From the NCBI GenBank assembly GCA_964597745.1, contig CAZQZF010000002.1, positions 1-26,547 of the forward strand: DNA of 26,547 nucleotides, written 5' to 3'. Origin of the DNA: an uncultured Zetaproteobacteria bacterium (lineage in GTDB: Bacteria; Pseudomonadota; Zetaproteobacteria; Mariprofundales; Mariprofundaceae). Below are positions 12,877 to 26,547 of the stretch, one piece after another; position 1 is the stretch's first letter, and the number at the start of each line of letters is the position of its first letter. The translations under genes were made by a program, and so were the position numbers. The notes under the pieces were generated by a model that worked only from the letters and a program-made list of their open reading frames with translations, ran no database searches and was not told the origin of the DNA.

Positions 12877-13065
12877 ATGTTGCAGATGGCAATTGCAGAT
12901 TTTTACAATGCCCAGCAAGCGGGGTTGGTCAGGGTGTTGATCGAAGGTGATACATATTACATTGTCGGCGATAATCTGATCGGTTCAGGGACAGCCTACA
13001 CCCGCGAAGAGATCGAACAGGCAGCCATGGCGACAGTTTTCGATGTCGAATACCTACAGGCATAA
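12877..13065 (+). CDS. Small hypothetical protein (62 aa), convergent with card1
   Basis: GAGGTG upstream of ATG 12877; plausible globular composition; no family recognised; 12-nt overlap with the card1 3' end. Confidence 0.3.
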   Translation: MLQMAIADFYNAQQAGLVRVLIEGDTYYIVGDNLIGSGTAYTREEIEQAAMATVFDVEYLQA

Positions 13066-14196
13066 TGGTTGATTCCGAACCTCTCCTTGATGTTGAATCC
13101 AGCGTCGAATCTTTTCATCCAAATGCCGGATGTCACGGCCCGTGCAGACAGCAATCCGGGCCTCGCTTGCCCGATTTCTGTCATGTTTTCCAAGCTTTTG
13201 GAAACTGACCAGCATGGATGCGGCGCGCAAACCGCCCAGGGCATCGGTTAATGCATCAAGCTTGTACACTGCATCCGAGCCGCCCTGTTTGAACTGTTTT
13301 GTCTTGCACTCAATCAGATGCAATCTGTTATCACACAAAAAAACGACATCAAGTTCATTGCATACCTCACCGCGCACCACGTTCAATCCCTGAGCCAGGT
13401 CATGGATATGCGGGTTGACGCTGCGCATGTGATGGATCACGGAAAAAACATGATGCTCCAGCCAACCGCCATTGACAAAAAAGCGGGCATCCTCATCCCG
13501 GAATCGCACCTGATCACCAGCGACCTCAAGCAGATTTTCCGCTGCAAACAGCCCCATTAAATCACCCAATTCTTTCCAGCGCCGTTTATCTTTGGGGACA
13601 GATGTCTGTAGCGTTGGATGCGCCTGATAGGCCAGATAATTCAGTGTTCCAAGCGGTGCGGTGAAGCGGTCAATCTCACTGATCAAGGTTCGGGTTAATT
13701 GGCGCAAATGTTTGGGCATGGCAGTGCGATTCATTGTCTTGCTCTGCACGCCATGCGCTTGCAGGAATTGCGGCAGACGAATTCTATCCTCGATGTCGAA
13801 TGCCTTTCTATCGGACGGATGCATCCAGATAACGCGATCCTTGTCAGGGTGGACATAAAAAATCGGCAATCCGAGTCCGCGAAACACCTCGTAAGCCGCA
13901 ATACTCATCGGCTTGGTGCCGCCAGTGGCATTTAAAGCGATGCTGCCCTCATGTTGCTCCAACAGTTCAAATACCCGATCTCGGATATGCTCCACATCCA
14001 TGGCATCATCAATCGGCCAGATAGATACGCGTACGCCGCATGGCTGAATCACCAGCTTGAGACGCTCAGCCTGCAACTTCTTTTCCGGGCTGGTCAGGAG
14101 GATCACTTCTTTCGGTTGAAATGAGGCATCCAGCAGCGGCGTGATATTCGGTGTTGGCTGATCGGAAACCAGGCAGAGGTGGCAGGTGGATTTCAT
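13054..14196 (-). CDS. card1: Card1/Can2-like CARF plus PD-(D/E)xK nuclease (DUF1887)
   Basis: HLCLVSDQPTPN, CARF motif LNATGGTKPMSIAAY, NGGWLE, NELDVV…LIECKT. Confidence 0.85.
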   Translation of the reverse strand: MKSTCHLCLVSDQPTPNITPLLDASFQPKEVILLTSPEKKLQAERLKLVIQPCGVRVSIWPIDDAMDVEHIRDRVFELLEQHEGSIALNATGGTKPMSIAAYEVFRGLGLPIFYVHPDKDRVIWMHPSDRKAFDIEDRIRLPQFLQAHGVQSKTMNRTAMPKHLRQLTRTLISEIDRFTAPLGTLNYLAYQAHPTLQTSVPKDKRRWKELGDLMGLFAAENLLEVAGDQVRFRDEDARFFVNGGWLEHHVFSVIHHMRSVNPHIHDLAQGLNVVRGEVCNELDVVFLCDNRLHLIECKTKQFKQGGSDAVYKLDALTDALGGLRAASMLVSFQKLGKHDRNRASEARIAVCTGRDIRHLDEKIRRWIQHQGEVRNQPLCL

Positions 14197-15425
14197 GCCA
14201 CCAGATCAGCCAGAGGCAGTGCTGTCACGCCGCCGCCCAGAGGCAGGCGCACATCACCGGGATGAATCACATAGCCGGGTGCAACCAGTGCTCCAAAGAG
14301 TGCTGAAAATTCATGGATGCCTCTGGCATAAGCCGGTTTGGGCGTACTGGATAGTTTAATTTCAACAGGATGCAGCCTGCCGTCTGATTCGATGATGATA
14401 TCCACCTCGCACCCTGCTGCCGTACGCCAGAACCAGACAGGAGGCCGTTCGCCCCGGTGCATATAATGCTTGACGATTTCGGCCAGAACGACGTTTTCCA
14501 TCAGCGCTCCACCCATAGGCCCGGCTGCGGCATGGAGGGGATCACGTAACCCAATCAGATAACAGAGGATGCCCGTATCCATGAAATAGACTTTCGGTCG
14601 TTTAACCAGGCGTTTGCCCACATTGGCATGATAGGGGCGCAATATAAAAATCTGGTAAGTCGCCTCCAGCACGGATATCCATGCCTTGATCGTATTGACT
14701 GCAATGCCAAGATCACGCGCAAGATCGGAAAGGTTGAGCAACTGGGCATTGTGTGCAGCCAGTGCGCGAAGAAAGGTTTGAAACTGTGTTAAATCGCCAA
14801 TCTGACGCAGGTTGCGTACATCACGCTCCAGATAGGTTTGCACATAAGCGGAAAACCACAGGGAAACATCCCTTTCAGGCGATGCTGCCAGTTCAGGATA
14901 GCCGCCACGCAGCACGTTGCGCCAGAGTTCATTGCCAGTAAAAGGTTTAGATGCCTGACCAGTCGATGCGCCTTCCCACGGAAACCGGACAGGCCCGGTT
15001 TGTTTCAATTCCCTGAGGGAAAGGGGCAAAAGTGTCAGCATGGCGGCGCGACCCGCCAGTGATTCAGAAATTTGCTGTGTGAGAAGAAGATTTTGTGAAC
15101 CGGTCAGCAGGTAACGCCCCGCATGATCCCTGTCCGCATCCACCTGTTCTTTGATATAAGGAAGCAGTCCTGGCGCGTATTGTACCTCATCGAAAATCAC
15201 CGGTGCCGGATACATGGCCAAAAAACCTCTTGGGTCTGCCGCCGCAGCCTGACGCACATCGGGCGGCTCCAGCGAAACGTAGGCGTAGTCATGGCCGAAC
15301 ATCCGTTTAAGCAGCGTTGTCTTGCCTGACTGGCGCGGTCCGGTCAGCACCAGAACAGGGAACTCTGCTACAGCCCGGCGGACAACAGATTCAATATTAC
15401 GGGGAATATATCCTTTCATAGCCAT
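14193..15425 (-). CDS. AAA_14 ATPase with DUF4143 C-terminus
   Basis: Walker A GPRQSGKTT, Walker B IFDEVQ, LTGSQ, LAGR, GGYPE, YLERDVR; C-terminal EVDIII…VEIK nuclease-like motif. Confidence 0.9.
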   Translation of the reverse strand: MAMKGYIPRNIESVVRRAVAEFPVLVLTGPRQSGKTTLLKRMFGHDYAYVSLEPPDVRQAAAADPRGFLAMYPAPVIFDEVQYAPGLLPYIKEQVDADRDHAGRYLLTGSQNLLLTQQISESLAGRAAMLTLLPLSLRELKQTGPVRFPWEGASTGQASKPFTGNELWRNVLRGGYPELAASPERDVSLWFSAYVQTYLERDVRNLRQIGDLTQFQTFLRALAAHNAQLLNLSDLARDLGIAVNTIKAWISVLEATYQIFILRPYHANVGKRLVKRPKVYFMDTGILCYLIGLRDPLHAAAGPMGGALMENVVLAEIVKHYMHRGERPPVWFWRTAAGCEVDIIIESDGRLHPVEIKLSSTPKPAYARGIHEFSALFGALVAPGYVIHPGDVRLPLGGGVTALPLADLVA

Positions 15426-15430
15426 ACTCT

Positions 15431-15463
15431 ATGCATATTTGCATTTCAAATGCAAATATGCAT
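15431..15463. promoter_or_regulatory. Perfect 33-bp palindrome, a candidate operator
   Basis: atgcatatttgcattt-c-aaatgcaaatatgcat, 16-bp perfect arms, 5 nt upstream of the ATPase start. The structure is certain; the function is inferred. Confidence 0.6.
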
Positions 15464-15483
15464 GAGGTAGTCTGCGCTATTTC

Positions 15484-15810
15484 TTAGTTAACAGCCGTTT
15501 TCCGTACCTGAAATTCCTCCAGCCGCGCATGGCAGCGAATCATGTCATCCATTGTCAATTCCCTGCCGCGAAGCTCTCGTGGCAGATCCAGTGAAAGATT
15601 GATATAGCGCGCTCCACGCTCACATACGGCGGCTGCAAGATGCACCGGCAATGAACCGATAACAGTATCGCCCGGCTGCACCTCACTCGTATCCAGATGG
15701 GCGCGGATTTCATCTGCCTCCATTCCCTGCAGACACAACCACTGCTGAGCTCCGGGATGCCGAGTGACAAACCATATACGGGAAGATGTCTTGCCTTCCG
15801 ATATGTTCAC
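15484..15810 (-). CDS. csx16: CRISPR-associated Csx16 (ring-nuclease family)
   Basis: WFVTRHPGA, GDTVIGSLPVHLAA, LDLPRELRGRELT motifs. Confidence 0.9.
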   Translation of the reverse strand: MNISEGKTSSRIWFVTRHPGAQQWLCLQGMEADEIRAHLDTSEVQPGDTVIGSLPVHLAAAVCERGARYINLSLDLPRELRGRELTMDDMIRCHARLEEFQVRKTAVN

Positions 15811-16883
15811 AGGTGTTTTCCCAACTGGTCAACAACAAAACAGTCACGCTCAAAATAACCAAATATTCGTTTCGCGCCCAGATCCGACCAGGCATACAAT
15901 TCGTGCGTGCAGGGGGGGTGCGGATCACCCTTCAGCCGTTTGAAATTGAGTGATCGCGGATTCGTTTTATCATAAAAATACCTGGCAAGTTCATCCATCC
16001 GTTCATTCACAATTCGTTTGCGTTCCGGTTGCAGCCCATTCACATCACGCTCAAAGCCGCATGAAAACCGGTAAGTATCCGCCAACGCGGGTAAAATAGA
16101 GTCTTCATATAATTTCGCTTTTGATTGATTCCAGACCAGTTCTCCCCAGTCTGACAGACAAACATCGCCGTCAATCTCCAGACGATAGAGCTCCGGGACC
16201 TCAGAAGGCAAGATATCAAGTCCAAGGTCAAGGCTGCGGAAGCCCTTTAGATGCTCACGCACCTCTTTCAGCGCATCCAGATAAACGGGCAGGCGGGGGA
16301 TTCGTAATAGCTCATTACCCGATTCAAAGATATAGATGCGCTCATCTGCATAGAATGCCCCCAGTGTTTGCATAAACCCCTGAATACTCTTGAAACCACC
16401 GGTGAGGTTGAACACAATGTGATAGCCTGATTGAGGAAGATCTTTTGCGCACCAGCGTGCAATATTTGCAAGCGCACGCCTAAAATGAGGCATGGAATCG
16501 GTGCGCAATCCCTCAAAGGTTTGCTCTTCCACACACAGCCCCGATTGCCGAAGCCACGCTTGTACGGCATCCGCGGCCTCCTTTCCCAACCATGTATCTG
16601 TGTGCAGCAGGATATGCTGATCCTGTTTTCCAAGATTCGGTTGATCACGGTAAAAATACATCAGTGCATTGATTTCAGCGCTTGCCTGTTTCGCCTCCTC
16701 CACGCTCATGCGCAGCATGCTATCGCGGCGATTCTGCAGGTGCCGGACGATCTGTTGACGGTGGTTAACAGGAATTGGCAAAGAACTGGCAGCATTACTG
16801 TATTGATTGCAAAGCCTGCGCACCTCCGGATCGGCCCTGTTGGTGATACAACTGGTGCCACAAAGACTGACGATATAGTTCAC
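15807..16883 (-). CDS. cami1: Cami1-like effector: APE2256-type CARF plus RelE-like mRNA interferase
   Basis: CGTS, SAEINAL, LLHTDT, FNLTGGFK, YIFESGNELLRIPRLP; C-terminal RelE-like domain (FKRLKGDP…HELYAWSDLGAKRIFG…LGKHL). Confidence 0.8.
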   Translation of the reverse strand: MNYIVSLCGTSCITNRADPEVRRLCNQYSNAASSLPIPVNHRQQIVRHLQNRRDSMLRMSVEEAKQASAEINALMYFYRDQPNLGKQDQHILLHTDTWLGKEAADAVQAWLRQSGLCVEEQTFEGLRTDSMPHFRRALANIARWCAKDLPQSGYHIVFNLTGGFKSIQGFMQTLGAFYADERIYIFESGNELLRIPRLPVYLDALKEVREHLKGFRSLDLGLDILPSEVPELYRLEIDGDVCLSDWGELVWNQSKAKLYEDSILPALADTYRFSCGFERDVNGLQPERKRIVNERMDELARYFYDKTNPRSLNFKRLKGDPHPPCTHELYAWSDLGAKRIFGYFERDCFVVDQLGKHL

Positions 16884-17347
16884 AGAAGTTTCTTTGTCGC
16901 TATATAGTTTCGTACAGATTCAAGCACTATCAGCAATGTCTGTGCATAATCATAAATACTGTTCAGCGCCTGAGCGCGATCTTCATCATTAAGCGGATAA
17001 TCGTGCGCCAGCCGGTTCCGAAGCAGCCGGGTTTCAATCCACTGCTCACTGTTGTCGATTAGCCTGCGTTTTTCCATAGCATGGAGGCAATCCAGCATCG
17101 AGACAGCCTCCTCCTGTTCAACCGTCAGCAGACCGCGGAACAACTGCCGCCCCAGCATATCCTGCAATTTACCGAAACGCATACAGAAGGCGTCAACACG
17201 CTCCAGCTCTTCCGGGGAAAGCACGCCTGTATTTCGACCATCCAGAGGAAAAATGGATGCCATCCGTTGCAGCGACCATTGCAGATGCTGAGCCAGCCGC
17301 GTGCATTGCTCCAGCGCCTCCGCCAACAATTTCCGCATATGAGTCAT
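16880..17347 (-). CDS. HEPN-like toxin (nucleotidyltransferase substrate-binding family)
   Basis: RVDAFCMRFGKLQD and Rx4H motif RNRLAHDY. Confidence 0.8.
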   Translation of the reverse strand: MTHMRKLLAEALEQCTRLAQHLQWSLQRMASIFPLDGRNTGVLSPEELERVDAFCMRFGKLQDMLGRQLFRGLLTVEQEEAVSMLDCLHAMEKRRLIDNSEQWIETRLLRNRLAHDYPLNDEDRAQALNSIYDYAQTLLIVLESVRNYIATKKLL

Positions 17348-17676
17348 AGTTCCACTCCCGTCTCAATGGCAACTTTCATGATGGTTTCCAACGGCTTGCC
17401 CCGCCGATGCAGCAGCAGATCAATCTTTTGCTCACCGAGCCGTCGCTGCAGGGCTACAGCCAGCCTGAGCTTGCGCTGGAACCAGTCGGAGGTGTCATCC
17501 ACTTCCAGATAAAGATCAATATCACCGCCCCGCTTCGCATCATCCACACGCGAGCCAAACAGATAAACGCAAGCGCCTGCGCCAAAGATTTCCTGAACGG
17601 CCTCGCGGATATGCTGTTGCTGAGCGGGGGTTAGGCGCAAGGTATTAACTGCGTTTTTCGGATAGTGCTTTGGCAA
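17344..17676 (-). CDS. Minimal nucleotidyltransferase (MNT) antitoxin
   Basis: LFGSRVDDAKRGGDIDL (GSx10DxD) and KIDLLL; true start is probably TTG 17640. Confidence 0.85.
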   Translation of the reverse strand: MPKHYPKNAVNTLRLTPAQQQHIREAVQEIFGAGACVYLFGSRVDDAKRGGDIDLYLEVDDTSDWFQRKLRLAVALQRRLGEQKIDLLLHRRGKPLETIMKVAIETGVEL

Positions 17677-18772
17677 TCTTTTTTGGCCGTTGCTTGAACT
17701 TCGGCTTATGCTTCTTGCCCATCACCGCATCGGGATTGGCCATGATTCCCCTGTACTTTTTCTCCATCCAGTCGCACAGATAACTTGCCACCTCTGGCAT
17801 GATCATGTCATGTTCCTCCAAGTATTGTTCCATATCCTGAAGGAAAGTCCCGTTATTGCCCCAACGCGATTCAGATTGATGCAGCAGTGCCAACTCCCGT
17901 TGACCGGGTGTCATTGCTGCCAGGCGAGCAGCCTGCTCTCTCTCTGCCGATACCTGTTTTTGTTGCTCACAGACTGCCTCGCGAACTGCTTCCTCCTCTT
18001 GCTGCGCTTGCTCATCCACCGCCATCGCCCCATAGCCGACTGCTGTCTTGGAACCAAACCCCAGCCAGTCAAAAACGTGCTCAAAACATTGTTTCAGCAT
18101 GACCTGCCAATCAAGAATGCCGGTCGGGCGAATCATTTGAACATGGAAGGCAAACTGCGCACCGGGAGCAACCGTAAGAAAAGGAATAGGATTAGGGGAT
18201 TCAGAATCGTGGGGTGATGCGATTCCTTCCTGAAGATACGCACTATGGTGCGGGGTCATGATATCCAGAGCCAGTTTACCCTGCGGAAATACATCCCAAA
18301 AGTTCAATGCGCCCTGGCTGTCATCGTCTGATCTACTGCCGAACAACTCGTCCACTACGCCAACATCAACTTTCAGTTCTTCAGCAGCACGAAGCATTAC
18401 TCCTTTCACCGACGAACCGGGCAGATAAGGAAGACCATAGGGGTTAAGGAATGCGAAGCCGTTTTCCAGAGGGTGTTCGTAGCCCATGCCTGTCGCAAAA
18501 GGCGCCGTGGCGATGGCATATTCAGAGTAAACAGAATCGCCTAATGTCAAAGCCTGAAACTGCTGCCGTTGTGCCAGAGAGTGCTGCCGTTGTGCCAGAG
18601 AGTGCTGCCGTTGATCATCAGGATGCAGTGCCAGCACCTTTTTGATTGCATCAGTTTTTTTATCCTTAACCATTTCCCATTGTTCATTCCAGATCGGGAA
18701 ATACATGCCAAACCGATGACCGGGCGCAGCCTGTTGCATATCGCGCATATATTGTGGAACTGCGGCTTTCAT
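17645..18772 (-). CDS. cmr6: Type III-B RAMP protein Cmr6, orphan in this window
   Basis: ENGFAFLNPYGLPYLPGSSVKG, GALNFWDVFP, DIMTPHH, SPNPIPFLTV, GFGSKTAVGYG; RBS TAAGGAG before ATG 18772. Confidence 0.85.
   Translation of the reverse strand: MKAAVPQYMRDMQQAAPGHRFGMYFPIWNEQWEMVKDKKTDAIKKVLALHPDDQRQHSLAQRQHSLAQRQQFQALTLGDSVYSEYAIATAPFATGMGYEHPLENGFAFLNPYGLPYLPGSSVKGVMLRAAEELKVDVGVVDELFGSRSDDDSQGALNFWDVFPQGKLALDIMTPHHSAYLQEGIASPHDSESPNPIPFLTVAPGAQFAFHVQMIRPTGILDWQVMLKQCFEHVFDWLGFGSKTAVGYGAMAVDEQAQQEEEAVREAVCEQQKQVSAEREQAARLAAMTPGQRELALLHQSESRWGNNGTFLQDMEQYLEEHDMIMPEVASYLCDWMEKKYRGIMANPDAVMGKKHKPKFKQRPKKIAKALSEKRS
18561..18613. repeat. In-frame 21-nt tandem repeat (2.5 copies) inside cmr6
   Basis: Unit tgctgccgttgtgccagagag at 18561 and 18582, partial at 18603; protein QRQHSLA-QRQHSLA-QRQ. 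Confidence 0.9.
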
Positions 18773-18782
18773 GATTTTCTCC

Positions 18783-18986
18783 TTAACCTGCATGCCGTAA
18801 CAGCTCTTCCGGTGCGTCCACAGGCAATACGCCATCTTTTTCAGCATCCAAAATAGTGATCTGACCAAGGCCATCTTCCGTTATTCCCGCCACCATATTC
18901 CAGCCATAGGAGATGTCCCGAATGATGGGTTTATCGTTAAAACGGATAAACAGCAGGTCTTCCTTATCATCATAGGTAATTTTCAT
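18783..18986 (-). CDS. DUF2283-like small protein (putative antitoxin)
   Basis: MKITYDDKEDLLFIRF…GQITILDA; ATGA overlap with the upstream gene. Confidence 0.75.
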   Translation of the reverse strand: MKITYDDKEDLLFIRFNDKPIIRDISYGWNMVAGITEDGLGQITILDAEKDGVLPVDAPEELLRHAG

Positions 18987-19249
18987 GTTATTAGCTCCCA
19001 ACGGATCATGACGGTCTTGATCACCAGATTTTCTTCTTGTACTGCGGCGGCACACATCAAATTATCATGACGATGGGCAAACGCATGATAAATCCAGAAA
19101 TGCTGCTTATCTTTTTCCTTCACGGTTCCACCTTCAATCAACGCCAACAGTTCACCTTTATGGATTCCTCGCTCCTGCATCCGTGCAATGGCATGCCGGG
19201 TAATTACGACACGACGATGGAAGCGTTTGCTGAACATCTTATCACTCAA
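18983..19249 (-). CDS. DUF4258-like small protein (putative RNase toxin)
   Basis: VITRHAIARMQERGI…LVIKTVM; TTG start (ATG 19237 is an alternative). Confidence 0.75.
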   Translation of the reverse strand: MSDKMFSKRFHRRVVITRHAIARMQERGIHKGELLALIEGGTVKEKDKQHFWIYHAFAHRHDNLMCAAAVQEENLVIKTVMIRWELIT

Positions 19250-19336
19250 TCAGAACCCCGGTGTCTGCAAACTGCCGCAGCCTGTTGTATATCGCACACA
19301 TATTGTGAAACAGCAGCCTGCATGATTTTCTCCTTA
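19246..19336 (-). pseudogene. Diverged duplicate of the cmr6 RBS and 5' end (25-codon mini-ORF)
   Basis: 19276-19336 versus 18725-18785: 53/61 identical, no gaps; MQAAVSQYVCDIQQAA versus MKAAVPQYMRDMQQAA. Confidence 0.8.
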
Positions 19337-19546
19337 TCCATACATCAGGCGACGCTCATGCGGGGCTGGAACTTCAACATCATCTTCGCGTGCGCTGGAG
19401 AACCACAATGCCATGGCCTGATGGATATTATTGCGTGCTTCACTGCCGCTTGCGCCATGTGCCATGCAACCGGGCAACTCCGGCACCTCAGCAATAAATG
19501 CATTATCTTCTTTGCTCCAGCAAATAATGGTTTCGTATTTATACAT
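19334..19546 (-). CDS. hicB: HicB-family antitoxin (short, no adjacent HicA)
   Basis: WSKEDNAFIAEVPELPGCMAHG…EA…I..AMALW. Confidence 0.85.
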   Translation of the reverse strand: MYKYETIICWSKEDNAFIAEVPELPGCMAHGASGSEARNNIHQAMALWFSSAREDDVEVPAPHERRLMYG

Positions 19547-19813
19547 CGGAGTTCTTCTTGCCCTTATGATTTATTTGATCCAAATCATCTTCCCAACTAT
19601 CCCGTTCTGCATGAATGTAGGCCATAATTTCCTGCATGGATTTTCGCGGATAATCCTTTCCATCCAGAGATTCGAGGAATGACAATAGACTTTCATCTGA
19701 TCGATCCTTTTCTTTATTTTCGTTCATAACCAAATACTTCGATTTCCTCTTCCTACCTCTCCCCTTGGCCACAATGCCGTCCTGATATTGACTCTCAATT
19801 TTACTGCCTGCAT
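19539..19813 (-). pseudogene. Probably frameshifted small antitoxin-like gene
   Basis: RBS TAAGGAG and ATG 19813 give MQAVKLRVNI, which stops early; a different frame gives …QDGIV…SMQEIMAYIHAERDSWE to the stop at 19539. Confidence 0.45.
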
Positions 19814-19880
19814 TTTATTTCTCCTTACGCCTGCTCAGACATCACTCTCGGAAAGGTAATACATGACTTTCAAAGGGCGC

Positions 19881-21347
19881 TCATTTTTTACCTCTATTGA
19901 ATTTTTCCTGCAAAGCCTTTAATGCATCAGAGGAAGCAGAATGATGCCTGGTTAGTTGCCCCTTAGGTTTCTTTTGTAGATGACCTTGTTTCATCTTGTC
20001 TTTCCGTTCTTGCGCTATAGGCATCCTGTTTTTCTGACGCATTCGTTGGCGGGCAATTTCAGCGGGGGGTAGGCCTTGCTGAATCTCCGGATGCGAACTG
20101 TGTTCCTTATTCCGAATCGACTGCTTAATTTTCGGTGCCAAGATTTCAGGCAATACTTCATTACCTTCTGCCATTTCCACCAACAACCACCCAAAGGGGC
20201 GCAACCTCTTTTGTTCATCCTGACTGCTCGCAGCCAGCCAGACAGTTTTTGCCTGTTTCTCCCATAAAGGTTGCTTGTCGCGCCCCTGCATAATCTTGAT
20301 ATTGCGCACACCATTGAGCGTAACTGATTCCGCACCGCTATGCCTTCCGACGCGCAATAAAAATGCCTTGTTATTTTTTAATAGCATTTGTACAGAAGCC
20401 TGTTGCAACAAGGCCAATGTTGCTTTTCTCCATTCCTGATCGAGAAGTCCTCTACCGCTTAACAGTTTTGTTTCCATATCCCATATTGGGCTGTAAAAAT
20501 GATTACAGGCGATGGCAATATCTTCAAAGCTAAAACGATACTCTGGAAGCTTTATTTTCTGATGCTCCAGTACTCCTCCAGGATTACTGATGCCAATTTG
20601 TCCAGTATAGGCGCGTACGTGAAATGGCGTTACGGTCTCCAATAATTGATACAATCCCGCTTTTTCCGCTTGTGACTTGATATTGTCTCCTGCCTTTTTC
20701 CTGCGATTGACGGCAAACAGGACTTCTGTCTGTGTCATGTTCTGCTTGTCCTGTCCGGCGCAATCACCAACCTGAACCAGTCTCATTGGGTCTTTGAAAA
20801 TTTCCTTCATGGAGTACTGAAACAGTCTTTGTTGTAGATCTCTGTTACGTTCGCCTCTTTCAGCCTGTTGCCCATGATTGATGCTATTCAACAATGCTGT
20901 TCGGATAGCGCCCTTCAAACCAGACCCCGGCAATATGGGATGGCGATTCAGGGGATTATAGAAGACTCTTTCGATTTCCAGTTTGTTCTGCACAGTTCTT
21001 CCGCCCGATTCCCTGTGCGCCGCCTGACCAATTTTACTTCGATAAAGTTCGGCCACGCCATGACTCACCCGTGTCTGGTTTATCGCGTGAGGAATCAATT
21101 GCTTCCTGTGCTCAAAAAACAATGCCTGCACGCGCATCAGCATTCGGCCACTGGCCTTACCTTCCAGCATTGACGCTAATTTCTTGCGCGTATCATCAGG
21201 CAACGAAGACAGTGCTCTATGATCAAATTCATACAATATATCGCCTTCAATGACATAATTTGTGGGAGCATAATCTTCATCCGTTCCCATATGCACGGGA
21301 GAAAGTGAAGTGATCAACACTTGCCGTGTTTCAGGAATGCCACTCAT
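19881..21347 (-). CDS. csm5: Type III-A RAMP Csm5
   Basis: LSPVHMG…Y.PTNY, ILPGSGLKGAIRTA, DPMRLVQVGD, LRVGRHSGAESVT, PFGW. Confidence 0.9.
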   Translation of the reverse strand: MSGIPETRQVLITSLSPVHMGTDEDYAPTNYVIEGDILYEFDHRALSSLPDDTRKKLASMLEGKASGRMLMRVQALFFEHRKQLIPHAINQTRVSHGVAELYRSKIGQAAHRESGGRTVQNKLEIERVFYNPLNRHPILPGSGLKGAIRTALLNSINHGQQAERGERNRDLQQRLFQYSMKEIFKDPMRLVQVGDCAGQDKQNMTQTEVLFAVNRRKKAGDNIKSQAEKAGLYQLLETVTPFHVRAYTGQIGISNPGGVLEHQKIKLPEYRFSFEDIAIACNHFYSPIWDMETKLLSGRGLLDQEWRKATLALLQQASVQMLLKNNKAFLLRVGRHSGAESVTLNGVRNIKIMQGRDKQPLWEKQAKTVWLAASSQDEQKRLRPFGWLLVEMAEGNEVLPEILAPKIKQSIRNKEHSSHPEIQQGLPPAEIARQRMRQKNRMPIAQERKDKMKQGHLQKKPKGQLTRHHSASSDALKALQEKFNRGKK

Positions 21348-22294
21348 GCGTCCACTTCCAGATGAATGGCCAACACAGGGGTATAACCCTGTTGTACCGT
21401 TTCAGGAATTGCCCGGGAAAGGCTGCCATCGCCTCCTAGGCCATGGCCGACAAACAGACTTTCCTGATATTTGTTCGGGGTCAGTACCGCACCTGTGTCA
21501 ACCAACAAGACGGGAGATTTGAAGGGTCGTCCTGTATGCACAGCCATGTCGCCATGTCTGCCAAAGCGAGTGAATGGCTGATACCAGCAGTGTTCAGCAT
21601 CAAGGGATAGCCCCTGTGATGCGCAGGGAGCAAGCGTCATCCAGGCATTGGCTTTTTCCTGTTCAGGCCATGTAGCGGAATCTTTTTTCAATAGCTCAAA
21701 TTTCCCTAGGCCAATGCTAGTATCTCGACCATAGCCACTGGTTCCTATATCCTCAATCATCATCTCGATCTCTTCCTGACCAATTCGATTAACATCAAAA
21801 CAAAGATAGATTTCCAACAGCATGCCTTGCACCGGCCAATATTGGGGCATTTGGTATGGCGCAAAAAGGTCAGTTCCCGTGGTACCGCTTAATCGGTTGA
21901 TGGTATTATGGGGTTGCGCTTTTTCCTGCCATAGCGGTGTACCTGCAATCTCCGTTTCACTTTTACAAACACGCAACCATTCCCGAACAGGTAAAATGAA
22001 ATTGGACTTCGGCAACCATTGGCGTTTCTTTACCTGCTTTCTATCTGCATCGGGTACATCATCATAGCGATACAGCGGCCATGCCGGTTTCGGAAGGAAC
22101 CCGGCGGGAAATGCATCGGAAACAACCAGAAACGGTTTTCCCTCTGTGTAGCCCTGTAGCAATGTCCGAAGTCTGTCTTCACCAAACCTGTGCCGGATTA
22201 TCCAGCACAGTTGCCCAAACAACGTATCCCCGCGAATGCTTCCGCCAAATGCAGATCGCGGCTGAATACGCATAGTGAGTGGCGCCATGGTCAC
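21344..22294 (-). CDS. csm4: Type III-A RAMP Csm4
   Basis: GDTLFGQLCW, LVVSDAFP, HNTINR, GYGRDTSIGLGKF. Confidence 0.92.
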   Translation of the reverse strand: MTMAPLTMRIQPRSAFGGSIRGDTLFGQLCWIIRHRFGEDRLRTLLQGYTEGKPFLVVSDAFPAGFLPKPAWPLYRYDDVPDADRKQVKKRQWLPKSNFILPVREWLRVCKSETEIAGTPLWQEKAQPHNTINRLSGTTGTDLFAPYQMPQYWPVQGMLLEIYLCFDVNRIGQEEIEMMIEDIGTSGYGRDTSIGLGKFELLKKDSATWPEQEKANAWMTLAPCASQGLSLDAEHCWYQPFTRFGRHGDMAVHTGRPFKSPVLLVDTGAVLTPNKYQESLFVGHGLGGDGSLSRAIPETVQQGYTPVLAIHLEVDA

Positions 22295-22296
22295 AA

Positions 22297-23010
22297 CTAC
22301 AGTTTCACCCGTTCCAGTCTTTCCTGAATGGATTGTCCATCTATTTGCAGACTACGAAAAGCGATTTTCCCATAGCCGCGAGACAACGATCCTCCCAAGC
22401 CAGTCAATTCAATCAGTTTGAGCCCACGAAAAATCGGTTTAAGTAAATCCTCACTGTCAACCACCTTCAGACTCAACTGAAACCTGAATCTTGCTCCGCC
22501 AGGAACACGCTCGGTGTTCCTTGGATTCTCCGCTGTTCCTTTGATACGATCAATAGTATTTTCCATCTTGGTTTCAGTGAGCAGCAGGTTTTTATCATCC
22601 ATCTCCCTGACCCACATCGCATCAAGAGCACAATCCCAGAAAGCCAGGCGGGTTGGGCCAATTTCCCTGACCAAATTCTCATCCATATTGGATCCGGTTG
22701 GCGAATAGCCAAAAAGTCGCAATATCTCGATACCCTGAGCTCTGTTGCCATCCAATTTGTGGATATGATCAATGCCAAGAGGTTTGCCGTTTGTCATACC
22801 AACCACGCCTGCATGCCATTCCATCAGGCTGCGCATCTTGCCCTTGATACTGGAACCGGGGATATATGGCTGATTGCTGACAGGGTTTTTGATGACCGGG
22901 TTATCCGTACCTCCAATATGCATCTCAGTATTGCCACTGCCAATATGGAGCCCTGAGACCAGTTCAATGATTCCGTTTATTTTTGAGATTCTATCCAGTT
23001 TCATGATCAA
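22297..23010 (-). CDS. csm3: Type III-A Csm3 backbone RNase
   Basis: SGLHIG, IGGTDNPVIK (catalytic Asp present), PYIPGSSIKGKMR, ENTIDR, ERVP, LGGSLSRGYG; ATG 23004 is an alternative start. Confidence 0.95.
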   Translation of the reverse strand: MIMKLDRISKINGIIELVSGLHIGSGNTEMHIGGTDNPVIKNPVSNQPYIPGSSIKGKMRSLMEWHAGVVGMTNGKPLGIDHIHKLDGNRAQGIEILRLFGYSPTGSNMDENLVREIGPTRLAFWDCALDAMWVREMDDKNLLLTETKMENTIDRIKGTAENPRNTERVPGGARFRFQLSLKVVDSEDLLKPIFRGLKLIELTGLGGSLSRGYGKIAFRSLQIDGQSIQERLERVKL

Positions 23011-23453
23011 TCTCCCTTTTCAACCTTGTAAAATCCCAGAAACGCTTCAAAAAATAATTTGGCAGTCCTTAAATCACTAAGGCCGTGCACTGAATCAATA
23101 ATTTGTTCCAATAACTCAACAAAAACAGTATCAACCAGTTTGCGACCTTTGGCATAGGCGGCTTTGGCCTTGAGCATCCGAATAAAGGGTAAATACTCAT
23201 CAAATCGTTCCGGATTTTGCCGAACCTTTTCTTCCCACATCACCAGTTCATCATAAAAACGACGGACTTGGGTGCCTTTATTCATTTCGCGTTTAACATC
23301 AGCAACTTTTTTTGCCGCTTTCCTGGCTGTAGTATCAAATAGGTTAGATGGGATATTCCCTCTATCATTTTTAAAGCAAATGTTGACATCTAGGGTTCGC
23401 GGTTCTTGATGACTGCGGCTGCCGCTACGGGGATTTGTTCGTGGATTATACAT
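23007..23453 (-). CDS. csm2: Type III-A small subunit Csm2
   Basis: TQVRRFYDEL, LKAKAAYAKGR, FFEAFLGFYK; lies between cas10 and csm3. Confidence 0.92.
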   Translation of the reverse strand: MYNPRTNPRSGSRSHQEPRTLDVNICFKNDRGNIPSNLFDTTARKAAKKVADVKREMNKGTQVRRFYDELVMWEEKVRQNPERFDEYLPFIRMLKAKAAYAKGRKLVDTVFVELLEQIIDSVHGLSDLRTAKLFFEAFLGFYKVEKGD

Positions 23454-23462
23454 ACTTTCTCC

Positions 23463-26132
23463 TTAATACCGTTCGTGATAAAGGTGCAAAAAAAGTGGCA
23501 CCCGAAACTTGCTTCCAAATAGATGAATCGGCTCTTTCAATACTTTTGCCAGTTCAACCATGCGCTGCTTACGTTCATCATTGTTAAGTCCACGGGTGCG
23601 TTCCAACATTCTCCAACTTCGGTAGGCGAACCATGCCTGCCAAATCGCATTTTCGATGTTTGGATGTTCCGATTTGAGGTTTTCTGACATGTTCGCCAGT
23701 TCCTGTAAGCGGTAAAGGTAGCCTGTGCTTAAACTATATTTCTCGCCAATGTTTTGGATATCATCGAAACAGCGCCACAACACTTCAAACTCTTTCCAGC
23801 TCGCAGTTTCACCAAATATAGTAATGGCATTCTTACCTTCATATAGCTTGGATGCATCCAGTGCAGTCTCCGCTATTTCTCCAAGCTGATGCACAGGCAG
23901 TCCCGGCTTGGTCATCACCAGCCCTGCTGAAAAATGGATGTCATGATTGTCTGCTACATAGCGCGAAAATTTCCGCTCTATTTCTCTAATCAATTTCACA
24001 GTGCTCTTCCATGGGCCGATCAGAAAAAAATCATCCCCGCCAGCGAAGACTGTATAGGTGCTTGGATACTTTTCCTGACACAGCATCGGCAAATAAACAG
24101 CAAAGAAAGCATTCATTTGACGAGATAGCGATGCCCACTTAGCAAAGGTCGGTCGCTCCAGACCCTTTTCAAAAATGGCCCCTAAATTATCCACATCTCC
24201 CTTGAGCACCATTAACGCGTCGCTGCCTTTCCACTTTCCTGATTCATCAACCCATAAATCATCCCTTGCGATATGCTCAAAGGTCTTGGGCGCAAGCGCA
24301 TCCCATTCTGATATCTTGTCCAACCCCTCGTAACGATCTTTGTCCCATGCATTCAACGCACCACACAGGGGGATATAAGCATCAATATTTCGCCGGGCAT
24401 AGCCTGAAAAAAGAGTGCTGTCCATATCAGCAGGCAGAGCATAATCCCATGCTCGCCGCAACTTTCCTTCTTTCGCCCATGCGCCGAATTTCCCTGTTGC
24501 ATCCTCGTCACCAGTGAAACTTGCCCAGTAACCAAACAGATTAAGCTTGAGCGTATGGTGGTTGGGGTTTTCTGTCGTTAGCAGCAGTCTGGCATAGTGC
24601 CCCAGCCACCGTCCGATCCGAATCTGATCAGCAGCAAGCCGTGATGCATATTTTCCAGCACCGGGTTCTATTTCTTCAATAGCCGGAGAACGGCCATCAA
24701 TAGCGCACACGCCCTTGTCCGCATCAAACGCATCCAGGAAGCTGTCAAAAACAGGCTTGGGGGCATGCTCGCAACAAAGCGAATATCGTTTTGTTTTCAT
24801 CTCTTCCAACTTGTGAAACAGGCAGCTAATCAATAGTTTGAAGGGCGCTTCTCTGTCTTTTCTTTTATTCAGAAAGTCATTACAGCACGCTGACTCCCAA
24901 GCCAGCCCGATACCCGACTGGCCATAGGTGTGTTCCAAAAACCACTGATCAACTTCCTGCTGTACTAATTGAAGTTTTTTCAGCGTTGCCTCACTGTTTG
25001 GAGCAACAATGAGAAACTTTCCAGCCGCATTGATAACCTGACTGGTTGGCGGAAGCTGCAGGCTTTCCAAGACCTTAAGTGCAACGCATTCCGTTAACAG
25101 GGATACATGGAATGAACGCCCGCGCATCAGCTTGGCTGCATTGCGCTGAGTTTCTCCCCCCGTAGCAAAAATAAATTCCTGGATGCCGAAAAAATCGCCC
25201 ATCACAATTAATAGTTTTTTCTCATCCCAATCATGCCTACTCTGCATCGCATCAATGGCGGAATCCTGATCCATCTGCTTATCGTGGTGATACCGCCATA
25301 AAGCCGTAGCAAGAGCAGACGTAGTTCGGGAGTGATCATACAGGGAAACTTCAGGTTTTGTGTTTCCAGCAGTCGCTGAAGGAATCGCATGAGTAAATGC
25401 TGCCCAAAGGGAGTCAAAGTGATCCAACCATAATGACCAGTTCTTTCGATGTGATGCCGGAATAGTTTTCAATGCCTCTGTAAAGCTATCCCAAAGTTGC
25501 CGGTACTCACTCTGTGCCTGGTTATTATGGTTGCTTTCGCACTCATCTGCCTTGACAGGAAACATTTGCTTTGCACTCATGGGTTTCAGCGGATGACGCC
25601 ACTTTAAATCTGCTTTGACTTCTTCTGTTTTTTGCTGCCAATGAATCTGTTCAAAAAGGGTCAGCTGCCTGGCGGTATAATGATTCCGTCCGGTTGATGT
25701 TTTCTCTTCTGCTACATTATAGGCTTCAAACTCCTCCCGCTCAAAACCAGAGGCGATTCGATCCGCTGTCGCCACAATCCACTGCAAAAATGTTTCTGGT
25801 TTGTGATGCTTGGCAGCAGCATTGATCATGGAGTCGGCGACATCAGGGCTTTTCCACGCTGGAAATGGAAGCATATCCTCACCAACCAGATCAGGAAGAT
25901 GGTGTTCAATCAGATCCATGGAAATAGCTGTATAGGCAGCATGAATATGTGTAAACCGGCCTGTTGCATCGGTAAATGCCTTTCGATGAGGGCAGTAAAG
26001 CTGCTTGTTAATCTCCAAATTTTCTTTATTTACCGGGTTGATACGGGCGCGTTCGGAGAATTTCCCCATGTCATGCAGTAAGGCAGATAAGGCAACCCTG
26101 CTGGATGCATCAAGTAAATCATTCTTCTTCAT
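23463..26132 (-). CDS. cas10: Cas10/Csm1
   Basis: HD motif LLHDMGKF, SLYDHS, GDFFGIQEFIF, RGRSF, KGDVDNLG, cyclase motif FAGGDDFF. Confidence 0.97.
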   Translation of the reverse strand: MKKNDLLDASSRVALSALLHDMGKFSERARINPVNKENLEINKQLYCPHRKAFTDATGRFTHIHAAYTAISMDLIEHHLPDLVGEDMLPFPAWKSPDVADSMINAAAKHHKPETFLQWIVATADRIASGFEREEFEAYNVAEEKTSTGRNHYTARQLTLFEQIHWQQKTEEVKADLKWRHPLKPMSAKQMFPVKADECESNHNNQAQSEYRQLWDSFTEALKTIPASHRKNWSLWLDHFDSLWAAFTHAIPSATAGNTKPEVSLYDHSRTTSALATALWRYHHDKQMDQDSAIDAMQSRHDWDEKKLLIVMGDFFGIQEFIFATGGETQRNAAKLMRGRSFHVSLLTECVALKVLESLQLPPTSQVINAAGKFLIVAPNSEATLKKLQLVQQEVDQWFLEHTYGQSGIGLAWESACCNDFLNKRKDREAPFKLLISCLFHKLEEMKTKRYSLCCEHAPKPVFDSFLDAFDADKGVCAIDGRSPAIEEIEPGAGKYASRLAADQIRIGRWLGHYARLLLTTENPNHHTLKLNLFGYWASFTGDEDATGKFGAWAKEGKLRRAWDYALPADMDSTLFSGYARRNIDAYIPLCGALNAWDKDRYEGLDKISEWDALAPKTFEHIARDDLWVDESGKWKGSDALMVLKGDVDNLGAIFEKGLERPTFAKWASLSRQMNAFFAVYLPMLCQEKYPSTYTVFAGGDDFFLIGPWKSTVKLIREIERKFSRYVADNHDIHFSAGLVMTKPGLPVHQLGEIAETALDASKLYEGKNAITIFGETASWKEFEVLWRCFDDIQNIGEKYSLSTGYLYRLQELANMSENLKSEHPNIENAIWQAWFAYRSWRMLERTRGLNNDERKQRMVELAKVLKEPIHLFGSKFRVPLFLHLYHERY

Positions 26133-26547
26133 CCCGCTTCCTCCTGCTTCAGTGCCATCATCTCATACCGGCCCATGCCCATCGTGGTCATTTTGCCGAT
26201 ATGCGTCCATTGACCCAGCCATAGCATCGGCCAGAGATGGTGCGCTTGAGCTGCTGTGAGGTCAAAGGCGCCAACCACGCCGCCAATTTTCATCGATGTT
26301 TTCTGGCGGCTGGAATAACGCTCTGTTTCCTGCCAGCGAAGGTCGGGGGCGCACCATTCTCCCGCTTCATCCACCGCGCATAATTGCCGCATGGCGGATT
26401 CATCGCCCCATGATGCGGCCAGACTGATCAACCTGCGCCGCAGTGCCCTGATCCATAGCTCCAGCGTCAGCGTATCCGGCGTGACAAAATGGCCCTGATG
26501 TTTGAACCGAACCGGCGTAATCAGTTGTAGATGCAATGTCTGCCCGG
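26129..26547 (-). CDS. cas6: Cas6, 3' part (open at the window edge)
   Basis: ITPVRFK, W.ETERYSSRQ…MKIGG and G-rich loop HIGKMTTMGMGRY; frame stays open to 26547; ATGA overlap with cas10. Confidence 0.88.
   Translation of the reverse strand, partial: GQTLHLQLITPVRFKHQGHFVTPDTLTLELWIRALRRRLISLAASWGDESAMRQLCAVDEAGEWCAPDLRWQETERYSSRQKTSMKIGGVVGAFDLTAAQAHHLWPMLWLGQWTHIGKMTTMGMGRYEMMALKQEEAG

Follow-up and report, generated by a model that had tools for sequence, protein, structure and literature searches.

A toxin-antitoxin pair probably transferred between type III-B CRISPR operon variants at short microhomologies in a Mariprofundaceae genome

The window analysed here is a whole stretch of 26,547 nt from a metagenome-assembled genome (MAG) of a Zetaproteobacterium (Mariprofundaceae), which comprises 318 contigs and is 94.7% complete. 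The genes of the locus are all encoded on the minus strand. A cas6-csm1-5 gene set occupies the locus in place of cmr2-cmr5, and the interval between csm5 and cmr6 holds small toxin-antitoxin (TA) genes, gene remnants, and a diverged direct repeat of the cmr6 start. In L103, the nearest relative, the type III-B operon is complete and runs cmr5-hicA-hicB-TAAGGAGAAAATC-ATG-cmr6. The features of the interval and of cmr6 are as follows, in the direction of the minus strand:

19840 to 19904, minus strand: 3'-tail remnant of a second, L103/G004-type cmr6 (KNERPLKVMYYLSE, cf. KHERTLKVMRYLAK)
19539 to 19813, minus strand: remnant of a PIN-associated (vapB-like) antitoxin gene, with a 16-nt deletion and a frameshift
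19334 to 19546, minus strand: orphan HicB-like antitoxin gene, 70 aa, 82.7% nucleotide identity to L103 hicB
19276 to 19336, minus strand: upstream repeat copy a', comprising the hicB TAA, ribosome-binding site and spacer GGAGAAAATC, and cmr6 codons 1-16
19246 to 19323, minus strand: stub open reading frame (ORF) of 25 codons, MQAAVSQYVCDIQQAAAVCRHRGSD and a stop, from ATG 19323-19321 to TGA 19248-19246
19242 to 19282, minus strand: cmr5 3' tail, (W)LRQFADTGVLIE and a stop in its own frame, with no start codon
18786 to 19275, minus strand: whole insert of 490 nt, comprising cmr5 tail, spacer, DUF4258, and DUF2283
18983 to 19237, minus strand: DUF4258 toxin-like gene (PF14076), intact, 84 aa, start ATG at 19237
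18783 to 18986, minus strand: DUF2283 antitoxin-like gene, intact, 67 aa, with C-terminus ..ELLRHAG and a TAA stop
18725 to 18785, minus strand: downstream repeat copy a'', comprising TAA, ribosome-binding site, and the live first 16 cmr6 codons
17645 to 18772, minus strand: cmr6, 375 aa, TIGR01898 match of 105.4 bits against a cut-off of 51.1

A preliminary description of this DNA reported the diverged 61-nt repeat, and the repeat is borne out. A repeat search pairs 18725-18788 with 19276-19339 (64 nt, 86% identical, spacing 551), and the 61-nt version is identical at 53/61 positions, against a best 61-nt match of 37/61 (mean 32.8) in shuffles of the region 17500-20000 (n = 100). On the minus strand both copies read TAAGGAGAAAATCATG, followed by cmr6 codons 2-16. 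The TAA of TAAGGAG had been taken in both copies as the stop codon of the preceding small gene, correctly so: TAA 19336-19334 ends the HicB-like gene (19334-19546) and TAA 18785-18783 ends the DUF2283 gene (18783-18986). A continuation of the repeat into the hicB and DUF2283 3' ends was rejected, since the match upstream of TAAGGAG is 8/21 positions by hand count and was put down to chance. Each of the ..RHAG and ..LMYG ends is native to the family of its gene, and the TAA stop and ..LLRHA(G/V/A) C-terminus of DUF2283 are native in L022, L097, L076, and L104, not borrowed. The 13 nt of TAAGGAGAAAATC are the same in both repeat copies and in L103, where the junction reads hicB..ATGTATGCA TAAGGAGAAAATC ATG AAA GTT GCG GTT CCA... 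Gene conversion between the copies as the source of their identical 16 nt is unneeded, since the L103 site has the same 16 nt. Compared with L103, the downstream copy is unchanged over the stop, binding site, and spacer (13/13 positions) and agrees at 43/48 coding positions. Between the stub and the live copy there are 8 differences, of which 5 are non-synonymous and fall at conserved Cmr6 positions; P6 and M9, invariant in the Cmr6 alignment, are S and V in the stub. Judged from these changes, the upstream cmr6 copy is a decaying, dead 5' stub. At 4/8 of the differing sites the stub shares its state with other hicB-type alleles (CAx at codon 2 and T at the third positions of codons 3 and 4 in L101, TGC at codon 10 in L105), and its source allele could differ from that of the live cmr6.

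Repeats are classic places for a mis-join, and in a 318-contig MAG a chimeric assembly of two strains has to be considered, as does a simple tandem duplication of the cmr6 start with later decay. The same arrangement is present in two further assemblies from other samples, JGI 3300023507 (100% identity over 9128 nt) and JGI 3300023310 (99.96% identity over 8848 nt, with all four mismatches within csm5), and the 5-7 nt shared at the junctions fall well short of assembler k-mers. Since these two assemblies agree and a de Bruijn mis-join would need longer homology, misassembly is very unlikely. Tandem duplication is contradicted by the DNA between the copies, which is unrelated to them and homologous to another operon, and artefact and tandem duplication together have a negligible chance of explaining the locus.

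The DNA between the copies had been regarded as a self-contained DUF4258/DUF2283 cassette. Instead, the insert opens with the last ~12 cmr5 codons and the native cmr5-DUF4258 spacer, not with the toxin gene. The tail sequence (GCAGTTTGCAGACACC..) aligns with the cmr5 3' ends of G001, G004, L103, and L101, and the first 60 nt of the insert (cmr5 tail plus spacer) are 88% identical to L104, an operon with the gene order cmr5-DUF4258-DUF2283-cmr6. Full-length identity of the insert is 80.2% to L104 and 64% to L097 and L022, which are natural operons of the same order; L076 is a further one from which the toxin has been lost. A scan of JGI metagenome contigs with Cmr6 returned two loci only, one of which, L097, is the third DUF4258-type operon. 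A donor closer than L104 (75% aa) was sought with the DUF4258 protein and none was found, the other matches being 54-65% identical or located in non-CRISPR TA islands. The GC content of the insert (46.5%) lies between those of its neighbours (40-51%) and is uninformative on origin. Because it starts with a cmr5 3' tail and the native cmr5-DUF4258 spacer, the insert is, by its gene content, a piece of another type III-B operon rather than a cassette with ends of its own.

This composition bears on the earlier analogy with phage attL/attR sites. The insert does lie between direct repeats and the target gene has stayed intact, as would follow from site-specific or Campbell-type integration of a ~551-bp circle that carried its own cmr6 5' copy and was mobilised in trans; GGCTGCG direct repeats in cmr5 and cmr6 of a DUF2283-type operon could in principle loop such a circle out. 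However, the insert has cmr5 coding DNA at its left end, and the absence of a nearby integrase, already remarked upon, extends to the entire 26.5-kb window, where no sizeable ORF matches integrase, recombinase, or transposase Pfam families. The analogy also led to the expectation of the same flanking duplication around such cargo elsewhere. With the 93-nt cmr6 start as query, no second cmr6 5' copy was found in 11 other operons with cargo in the cmr5-cmr6 gap (four with DUF2283, seven others); the pair thus lacks such a repeat in four native cmr operons, and it also occurs in TA islands outside cmr operons. A crossover within the 61 nt predicts one DUF2283-type spacer, whereas both copies carry the L103 spacer; in the place of TAAGGAGAAAATC, DUF2283-cmr6 operons read TAAGGGGTCATT, TAAAGGAGAAGATG, TAAAGGAGAAGAAGTC, or TAAAAGGAGGCGATC. 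Given the minimal pairing lengths of RecA, 61 nt at ~87% identity is a poor substrate for homologous integration. Together with joints of 5-7 nt of microhomology, these observations make integration of a circle highly improbable.

The preliminary description also proposed an insertion at the cmr6 5' end that restored the gene, and suggested a search of relatives for an empty site. Both points hold: cmr6 is whole, with a decaying 5' stub upstream, and the 16-nt junction recurs in L103 with no insert. L101 and L105, which share the hicB-10 nt-cmr6 layout, likewise have no insert. Elsewhere in the locus, L103 is 87% identical to the window in MNT-HEPN and 93.6% in DUF4143-Card1. The hicB and stub flank is nearest to L103 throughout (80-87%; 82.7% overall), as are the first ~750 nt of cmr6 (80-97%, with 90% in the first comparison window), and no L104-like tract was seen at the cmr6 5' end in the identity comparison; the C-terminal tail of cmr6, from ~18020, is L101-like. 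At the left joint the shared bases are GGCTGCG (19282-19276, the end of the upstream copy), which belong both to cmr6 codons 14-16 (CAG GCT GCG) and to the conserved cmr5 WLR tail (TGG CTG CGG). At the right joint TAAGG(AG) is common to the DUF2283 stop with the ribosome-binding site that follows it and to the hicB stop with the cmr6 ribosome-binding site. The microhomologies are thus 5-7 nt long, with L104 itself reading GGCTACG, not GGCTGCG, and the junction positions are known only to within a few bases because the best stand-ins for donor and recipient reach no more than 80-85% identity. Short microhomology at both joints, an empty site in relatives (L103, L101, and L105), and a donor-type arrangement in others (L104, L097, and L022) are the features of a recombination scar.

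Taken together, the comparisons indicate that the TA pair was probably transferred between III-B operon variants by microhomology-mediated recombination, and did not arrive as an att-like cassette. The ancestor would have been a III-B operon of the L103 kind, cmr5-hicA-hicB-TAA-GGAGAAAATC-ATG-cmr6, into the first cmr6 codons of which a 490-nt piece of an L104-like III-B operon was spliced. The donor operon would have had DUF4258-DUF2283 in place of hicAB in the same cmr5-cmr6 gap, and the transferred piece would start within the cmr5 tail and finish with the DUF2283 stop codon, both joints having formed at short chance homologies, GGCTGCG and TAAGG. With the re-entry point (-13) upstream of the exit point (+48), 61 nt of recipient DNA would have been copied twice, so that a dead 5' stub, which drifted after the event, would stand upstream of a complete cmr6. 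No site-specific recombinase would have been involved. Candidate pathways are double illegitimate recombination at microhomologies, template switching on incoming or ectopic DNA, and homology-facilitated illegitimate recombination (HFIR) anchored in cmr6. To our knowledge, no single bacterial pathway is well documented as producing an insertion that combines microhomology at each end with duplication of 61 nt of the target.

Further scars lie on the csm5 side of the insert. The tail remnant of the second cmr6 (19840-19904) spans the csm5 stop and has a 1-nt deletion; it is followed by TAAGGAGA and then by the vapB-like start, as in L103. The 3' part of the vapB-like remnant is fused in frame with the last ~7 hicA codons (ending ..GKKNSDV, cf. 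..GKEKHDA in L103), 19562-19547 being hicA 3' DNA, and hicA, the partner of the orphan hicB, is deleted. No promoter-like or terminator-like site was seen between csm5 and cmr6. The cmr6 product scores above the TIGR01898 cut-off, and the companion genes cmr2-cmr5 are absent: a genome search found no other cmr genes, no second cmr locus, and no donor copy of the insert, and Cmr4 and Cmr5 of relatives, searched against the whole MAG by tblastn, gave only a weak RAMP match, in csm5. The transfer would be one of several illegitimate joints within 700 nt between csm5 and cmr6, which together would record the replacement of a III-B effector module by its III-A (csm) counterpart; the orphan antitoxin genes (the vapB-like remnant and hicB) would be what remained as TA pairs were serially displaced.

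These scars are also relevant to an alternative origin, the fusion of two III-B loci, X (..hicA-hicB-cmr6..) and Y (..cmr4-cmr5-DUF4258-DUF2283-cmr6-MNT-HEPN..), in tandem or via incoming DNA. One event at GGCTGCG, either a deletion or an illegitimate crossover, would have joined codon 16 of the X cmr6 to the Y cmr5 tail and removed cmr2-cmr5 of Y, and the 61-nt copies would be the 5' ends of two different cmr6 genes with no target duplication. Such a fusion needs only one illegitimate joint at the time of the event; the CAx of codon 2 and TGC of codon 10 in the stub, common to the hicB-type alleles L101 and L105, fit two source genes, and the second-cmr6 tail and the vapB'::hicA' fusion upstream imply that more than one cmr6-bearing unit was once present. 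Operons of the hicB type (L101) and DUF2283 type (L104) do coexist in one sample, JGI 3300022695. However, fusion presupposes that locus Y was already mosaic, switching from L104-like to L103-like sequence directly after the DUF2283 stop, and the TAAGG joint is therefore required here too. Moreover, TAAGGAGAAAATC is identical in L103, the first 90 nt of cmr6 are 90% identical to L103 vs. 80% for L104, and the two flanks are equally distant from L103, as expected of one locus. Fusion of two loci is accordingly regarded as possible but unlikely, and microhomology-mediated transfer of the pair remains the preferred reading.

The transferred genes are predicted to constitute a type II TA pair on the basis of family matches and a conserved overlapping partner. 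DUF4258 belongs to the BECR / RelE-ParE superfamily, and the family is described as uncharacterised (PMC11980606). The two products match PF14076 (41.6 bits, cut-off 25) and PF10049 (33.3 bits, cut-off 23), respectively, and the DUF4258 stop overlaps the DUF2283 start (ATGA) in a bicistronic arrangement. The pair is also found in L022, L097, L104, and L109-L112, which include non-CRISPR TA islands. Placement of the DUF4258 start at TTG 19249, within a TTGA overlap, was mistaken; homologues begin MLSKRF, MRSARF, or (L)FSKRF, and the start is therefore assigned to ATG 19237-19235, giving MFSKRF. The 25-codon ORF opened by the upstream repeat copy does exist as described. It begins on the cmr6 ribosome-binding site and ATG, crosses the cmr5 tail out of frame, and terminates at a TGA that is the native cmr5 stop position in an L104-type operon, 8 nt upstream of the DUF4258 ATG; TTCTGATTGAGTGATAAG provides stops in all three frames immediately upstream of that ATG. 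The stub retains a strong ribosome-binding site and ATG. A good ribosome-binding site is missing in front of DUF4258, a gene that in native operons directly adjoins or overlaps the cmr5 stop. The role of cmr5 as the preceding cistron that hands ribosomes on to DUF4258 has therefore probably passed to the stub ORF, and it is plausible, as first suggested, that its initiation signal now serves the toxin gene.

Read in this way, the locus offers a clean, readable natural case of defence-operon re-tiling. A TA pair would have moved between two variants of one III-B operon without mobile-element machinery, the downstream gene surviving via its duplicated start and an upstream leader ORF arising by accident. 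With the neighbouring scars, the locus would record replacement of a III-B effector module by III-A, with cmr6, accessory genes, and TA pairs staying in place. For annotation, duplicated gene starts beside small cassettes can be recombination scars and not att sites, and a cmr6 found alone in a csm operon can have been left behind and is then no evidence of a hybrid complex. The case opens neither a new mechanism nor a long-standing question. The cmr5-cmr6 gap holds three unrelated TA types in 11/81 operons. It is conceivable, if rather doubtful, that this and other III-B gene boundaries are a preferred docking site at which TA pairs become translationally coupled to Cmr subunits and are serially displaced by recombination between operon variants, with arrays of orphan antitoxins shielding the host from re-addiction and the stub ORF a selected leader. 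If true, such docking would be a CRISPR-operon counterpart of type VI secretion system (T6SS) orphan-immunity arrays, and the stub leader would keep the newest toxin coupled after the loss of cmr5.

Several known systems share features with this locus. As in phage and ICE attL/attR pairs, direct repeats bracket foreign DNA and the interrupted gene stays complete; unlike those elements, the locus has no integrase, its repeat does not accompany the pair in the native cmr operons examined, and the insert ends in operon DNA (the cmr5 tail) at microhomologies. Integron cassettes are likewise small and promoterless, arranged in a row, and expressed from upstream. Short leader ORFs in integrons can aid translation of cassettes that have no ribosome-binding site of their own. 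Here, in contrast to integrons, there is no attC, attI, or IntI, and the boundaries are not cassette-specific. HEPN-MNT pairs occur in type III loci. TA genes within or next to CRISPR-cas cassettes have been noted for archaea (PMC3973734), with small TA pairs similarly interleaved with cas genes; the present case differs in being position-specific, to the cmr5-cmr6 gap, and in that one inter-operon transfer is readable from its scar. Double illegitimate recombination (SPDIR) in Acinetobacter baylyi (bioRxiv 10.1101/2023.11.22.568220) and HFIR, known in transformable bacteria (PMC3240628), also integrate ectopic DNA at microhomologies, with or without one homologous anchor, although the SPDIR patches described are short microindels and not a 490-nt insert with a 61-nt recipient duplication. 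HFIR has been invoked to explain module displacement that leaves orphan immunity genes, as in the orphan immunity arrays of Vibrio cholerae T6SS clusters and in the exchange of C-terminal modules at Rhs/CDI loci (PMC5361080). The present case, known from sequence alone, departs from these in involving type II TA pairs in a CRISPR type III effector operon, in the entry of the new pair downstream of the old antitoxin, and in duplication of the 5' end of the neighbouring gene, not its 3' end. In common with them, a related cluster appears to have supplied, from its equivalent position, a toxin/antidote module that was added without an integrase, conserved cluster genes may serve as the anchor, earlier antidote genes stay as orphans (hicB and the vapB-like remnant), and stubs of a flanking conserved gene mark the joints.

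All of the relevant genes of the locus are found on the minus strand, and a lone intact cmr6 lies within a complete cas6-csm1-5 locus (13054-26545). The remainder of the window carries housekeeping genes.

Gene order of the locus along the minus strand (named genes called with Pfam and NCBIfam).
26129-26545, minus strand, cas6
23463-26132, minus strand, cas10/csm1
after csm1, minus strand, csm2, csm3 and csm4
19881-21347, minus strand, csm5-like RAMP gene, 488 aa
19539-19772, minus strand, 77-aa ORF 3' of the csm5-like gene
19334-19546, minus strand, HicB-like antitoxin, 70 aa
between the HicB-like gene and DUF4258, minus strand, the stub ORF (see below)
18983-19237, minus strand, DUF4258
18783-18986, minus strand, DUF2283
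17645-18772, minus strand, cmr6 (TIGR01898, 105 bits)
after cmr6, in order: MNT, HEPN, Cas_APE2256 CARF protein, Cas_VVA1548, DUF4143 ATPase, Card1, rpsO, pnp

The source MAG (318 contigs, 94.7% complete) encodes no cmr2-5, and no second DUF4258/DUF2283 copy and no hicA were found in it. Comparison with L103, the closest relative of the locus (JGI 3300023548), suggests that the lone cmr6 is a leftover of a replaced III-B module. The window encodes no integrase, recombinase or transposase, in agreement with the preliminary description, which had seen no integrase nearby. Upstream of the DUF4143 ATPase gene lies a 33-nt palindrome (15431-15463) that is kept at 97-100% in L103 and a second relative, L097, even where its flanks are only ~67% identical.

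The start of cmr6 is present twice. Positions 18725-18788 and 19276-19339 are 86% identical over 64 nt and lie 551 nt apart (repeat search). Over the 61 nt originally reported, 53 positions match, against a best 61-nt match of 37/61 in 100 shuffles of the surrounding 2.5 kb, which confirms the diverged repeat. Both copies consist of a TAA, GGAGAAAATC, an ATG and 15 further cmr6 codons, and the TAA is indeed the stop codon of the preceding small gene, hicB for the upstream copy (the stub, 19276-19336) and DUF2283 for the downstream, live copy (18725-18785). The identical cmr6 protein is present on five contigs. Two of the loci were fetched, from two further JGI samples; over the entire region one matches the window at 100% and the other at 99.96%, the four mismatches of the latter all lying in csm5. 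Since the novel joints share only 5-7 nt, they are very unlikely to have been made by the assembler.

For comparison, 80 loci were gathered from species-representative genomes with a Cmr6 alignment, and further loci were added from metagenomes. In about 70 of the 81 loci with cmr5 upstream of cmr6 the two genes abut or overlap (gap <=26 nt), and in 11 the gap holds 250-700 nt of cargo, always a toxin-antitoxin (TA) pair or what is left of one. Three unrelated kinds occur: hicA-hicB (L018=G040, L054, L101, L103, L023), DUF4258-DUF2283 (L022, L097, and L076 with DUF2283 alone) and reversed RHH-PIN (L092, L085, L024). Two loci fetched later, outside the 11, carry hicB with hicA gone (L105) and DUF4258-DUF2283 (L104). 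The genes preceding the two repeat copies are thus ordinary alternative residents of the cmr5-cmr6 gap, and their ends are native ones: DUF2283 ends in ..LLRHA(G/V/A) with a TAA stop followed by a ribosome-binding site, and hicB ends in ..RLMY(A/G), 10 nt from the cmr6 ATG. The toxin partner is the one that repeatedly decays in relatives, through a stop codon, loss of the start, truncation or deletion: hicA carries an in-frame stop in L101, is missing from L105 and is cut short in L023; DUF4258 has been deleted from L076 and lacks a start codon in L104; and PIN is truncated in L097 and L103. TA pairs also occur at other gene boundaries of zetaproteobacterial and gammaproteobacterial III-B operons (L018, L054, L097, L101, L103, L104 and others), with vapB-PIN in the cmr3-cmr4 gap and MNT-HEPN in the cmr2-cmr3 gap or after cmr6. 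A truncated DUF4258 (56 aa) paired with DUF2283 is found in a non-CRISPR TA island beside ParE, Phd and MqsA-like genes (L109-L112; JGI samples 3300009408, 3300023310, 3300023481 and 3300023444, one of which also holds the window's organism).

An insertion into the 5' end of cmr6, as first proposed, is borne out by an empty-site allele. L103 carries a complete III-B operon, cmr2-cmr3-cmr4-cmr5-hicA-hicB-cmr6, and is 84.5% identical to the window in cmr6, 87% in MNT-HEPN and 93.6% in DUF4143-Card1. Its hicB-cmr6 junction, ..CGTCGCCTGATGTATGCA TAAGGAGAAAATC ATG AAA GTT GCG GTT CCA CAA TAT ATG CGA GAT ATG CAA CAA GCT GCG CCC.., has no insert and shares the 16-nt TAAGGAGAAAATCATG with both window copies. 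In sliding windows, hicB and the upstream copy are nearest L103 throughout (80-87%, overall 82.7%), as are the downstream copy and the first 750 nt of cmr6 (80-97%); the first 90 nt of cmr6 are 90% identical to L103 versus 80% to L104. The cmr6 gene is itself a mosaic, its first ~750 nt L103-like (80-97%) and its C-terminal tail (17645-18030, minus strand) L101/G040-like (58-78%) and unrelated to that of L103; two tail types circulate among these Cmr6 proteins. Within the gene, three in-frame 21-nt tandem units (18552-18614, minus strand; QRQHSLA repeated) are found where L103 has one.

The insert was previously taken to be a DUF4258/DUF2283 cassette; it is not self-contained and begins with operon DNA. 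Directly after the upstream copy stands GCAGTTTGCAGACACCGGGGTTCTGATTGAGTGATAAG-ATG, in which GCAGTTTGCAGACACCGGGGTTCTGATTGAGTGATAAG is the 3' end of cmr5 (..RQFADT..) by alignment with G001, G004, L103 and L101. Its best match is L104 (JGI 3300022695), a III-B operon of the order cmr3-vapB-PIN-cmr4-cmr5-DUF4258-DUF2283-cmr6, whose cmr5 tail and spacer (..GCAGTTTGCCGACACAGGCAGTTCTGATTGAGCGATAAG-CTA TTCAGCAAACGC) match the remnant in the window over its full length, bar one 1-nt indel. Over its 490 nt (18786-19275) the insert matches L104 at 80.2%, rising to 88% over the tail, and L097 and L022 at only 64%; in protein sequence it shares 74% of the toxin and 82% of the antitoxin with L104, and a collection of 5.8 billion proteins holds no closer DUF4258. 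This pair and MNT/HEPN are the only intact TA pairs in the window, which fits DUF4258/DUF2283 as the latest arrival.

Both joints can be read to within a few nucleotides. At the left joint, cmr6 codons 14-16 (CAG GCT GCG) and the conserved cmr5 tail (TGG CTG CGG CAG TTT) share GGCTGCG, and it is exactly there (19282-19276) that the window switches from cmr6 to cmr5. At the right, the DUF2283 gene ends in ..GGT TAA, which in donor-type operons is followed by GGGGTCATT (L104) or AGGAGAAG.. (L097, L022); in the window the recipient's GGAGAAAATC comes next, which puts the switch back within TAAGG(AG). With the return at -13 from the cmr6 ATG and the exit further downstream, at +48, 61 nt were duplicated. 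In none of the 11 other cargo-bearing operons is the cmr6 start found a second time, so that, judged by this set, the duplication is a single scar peculiar to this lineage and not a property of the pair, around which a look for the same flanking duplication elsewhere had been suggested. Three routes would fit the recombination pathway, among them double illegitimate recombination or template switching at the microhomologies on ectopic DNA, and homology-facilitated illegitimate recombination with cmr6 as the anchor. The third and less likely route, in which a donor operon loops out a circle between its GGCTGCG repeats and the circle then integrates in the Campbell manner, predicts a donor-type spacer in one repeat copy, which is not seen. 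A 15-nt tandem duplication in the cmr5 tail of L022 (4500-4536; ..FADSE FADSE Q*), at the DUF4258 joint, is another small scar of that boundary.

The stub differs from the live copy at eight positions, giving K2Q (2 nt), two silent alanine changes, P6S, M9V, R10C and M12I. The Cmr6 alignment shows no variation at P6 or M9, so the constraint that acts on Cmr6 has lapsed in the stub. The stub keeps its ribosome-binding site and ATG unchanged, and its ORF runs for 25 codons from the ATG at 19323 to a TGA at 19248-19246, 8 nt before the DUF4258 ATG. Owing to the 1-nt indel, this TGA coincides in place and frame with the native cmr5 stop of L104 (GAT TGA); each of the three frames meets a stop in the spacer TTCTGATTGAGTGATAAG. 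Native operons place the start of DUF4258 at or across the cmr5 stop (ATGA in L022; TGA-3 nt-ATG in L097), and the gene lacks a convincing ribosome-binding site. Between csm5 and cmr6 no sites resembling a promoter or a terminator were found, and the pair is probably transcribed from the csm operon. The stub ORF probably now plays the role of cmr5, bringing terminating ribosomes to the toxin start. The idea that DUF4258 borrows the cmr6 initiation signal may accordingly hold for the leader, with its intact ribosome-binding site and ATG, and fails for the TTGA overlap: a TTG start is not supported, since all homologues align from an ATG (M[FLR]S[KA]RF).

The 700-nt interval between csm5 and cmr6 holds further scars. 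Across the csm5 stop (19840-19904, minus strand), ~60 nt are homologous to the 3' tail of a cmr6 of L103/G004 type, reading KNERPLKVMYYLSE (compare KHERTLKVMRYLAK) and ..KHERTLKVMRYL.., and lack 1 nt. Next come TAAGGAGA and the beginning of a PIN-associated antitoxin gene (MQAVKL..; 19539-19813, minus strand), in the same order as in L103; homologues of the gene occur in L018, L054, L097, L103 and L104. In the window the gene has a 16-nt deletion and a frameshift, and the 77-aa ORF is its 3' half joined in frame to the last ~7 codons of hicA. The PIN toxin, cmr4, cmr5 and hicA are missing from the locus (cmr4, cmr5 and hicA from the whole MAG), leaving hicB an orphan antitoxin. The stretch 19840-19904 looks like the joint at which a csm (III-A) effector module replaced the cmr (III-B) module. 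From the scars and the lost genes, the locus resembles a III-B operon of the L103 kind in which a csm module has taken the place of the effector genes, with cmr6, the accessory genes and a string of antitoxin genes apparently left behind. The remnants of a second cmr6 upstream, and four stub states common to other hicB-type alleles, would also suit a possible fusion of two loci by a single deletion at GGCTGCG; the DUF2283-bearing locus must then turn from L104-like to L103-like exactly at TAAGG, which is the same second joint.

The preliminary description was thus half right, in the insertion, the empty site and possibly the borrowed leader, and half wrong, in an att-like, self-contained cassette and a TTG start. 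That CRISPR-cas cassettes can contain TA genes is known in general (PMC3973734), and DUF4258 is an experimentally uncharacterised BECR-fold member of the RelE/ParE superfamily (PMC11980606). Unlike integrative elements, and contrary to the suggested likeness to attL/attR, the insert has no recombinase, a repeat absent from the 11 other cargo-bearing operons, and ends made of operon DNA. The closest analogues are the T6SS effector-immunity modules of Vibrio cholerae, which displace one another in sequence, and C-terminal displacement in Rhs/CDI: there, homologous clusters supply the added modules through homology-facilitated illegitimate recombination, and orphan immunity genes and stubs are left behind (PMC5361080). 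The event is a new example of this already known kind, and is of note mainly because its scar is so completely readable.
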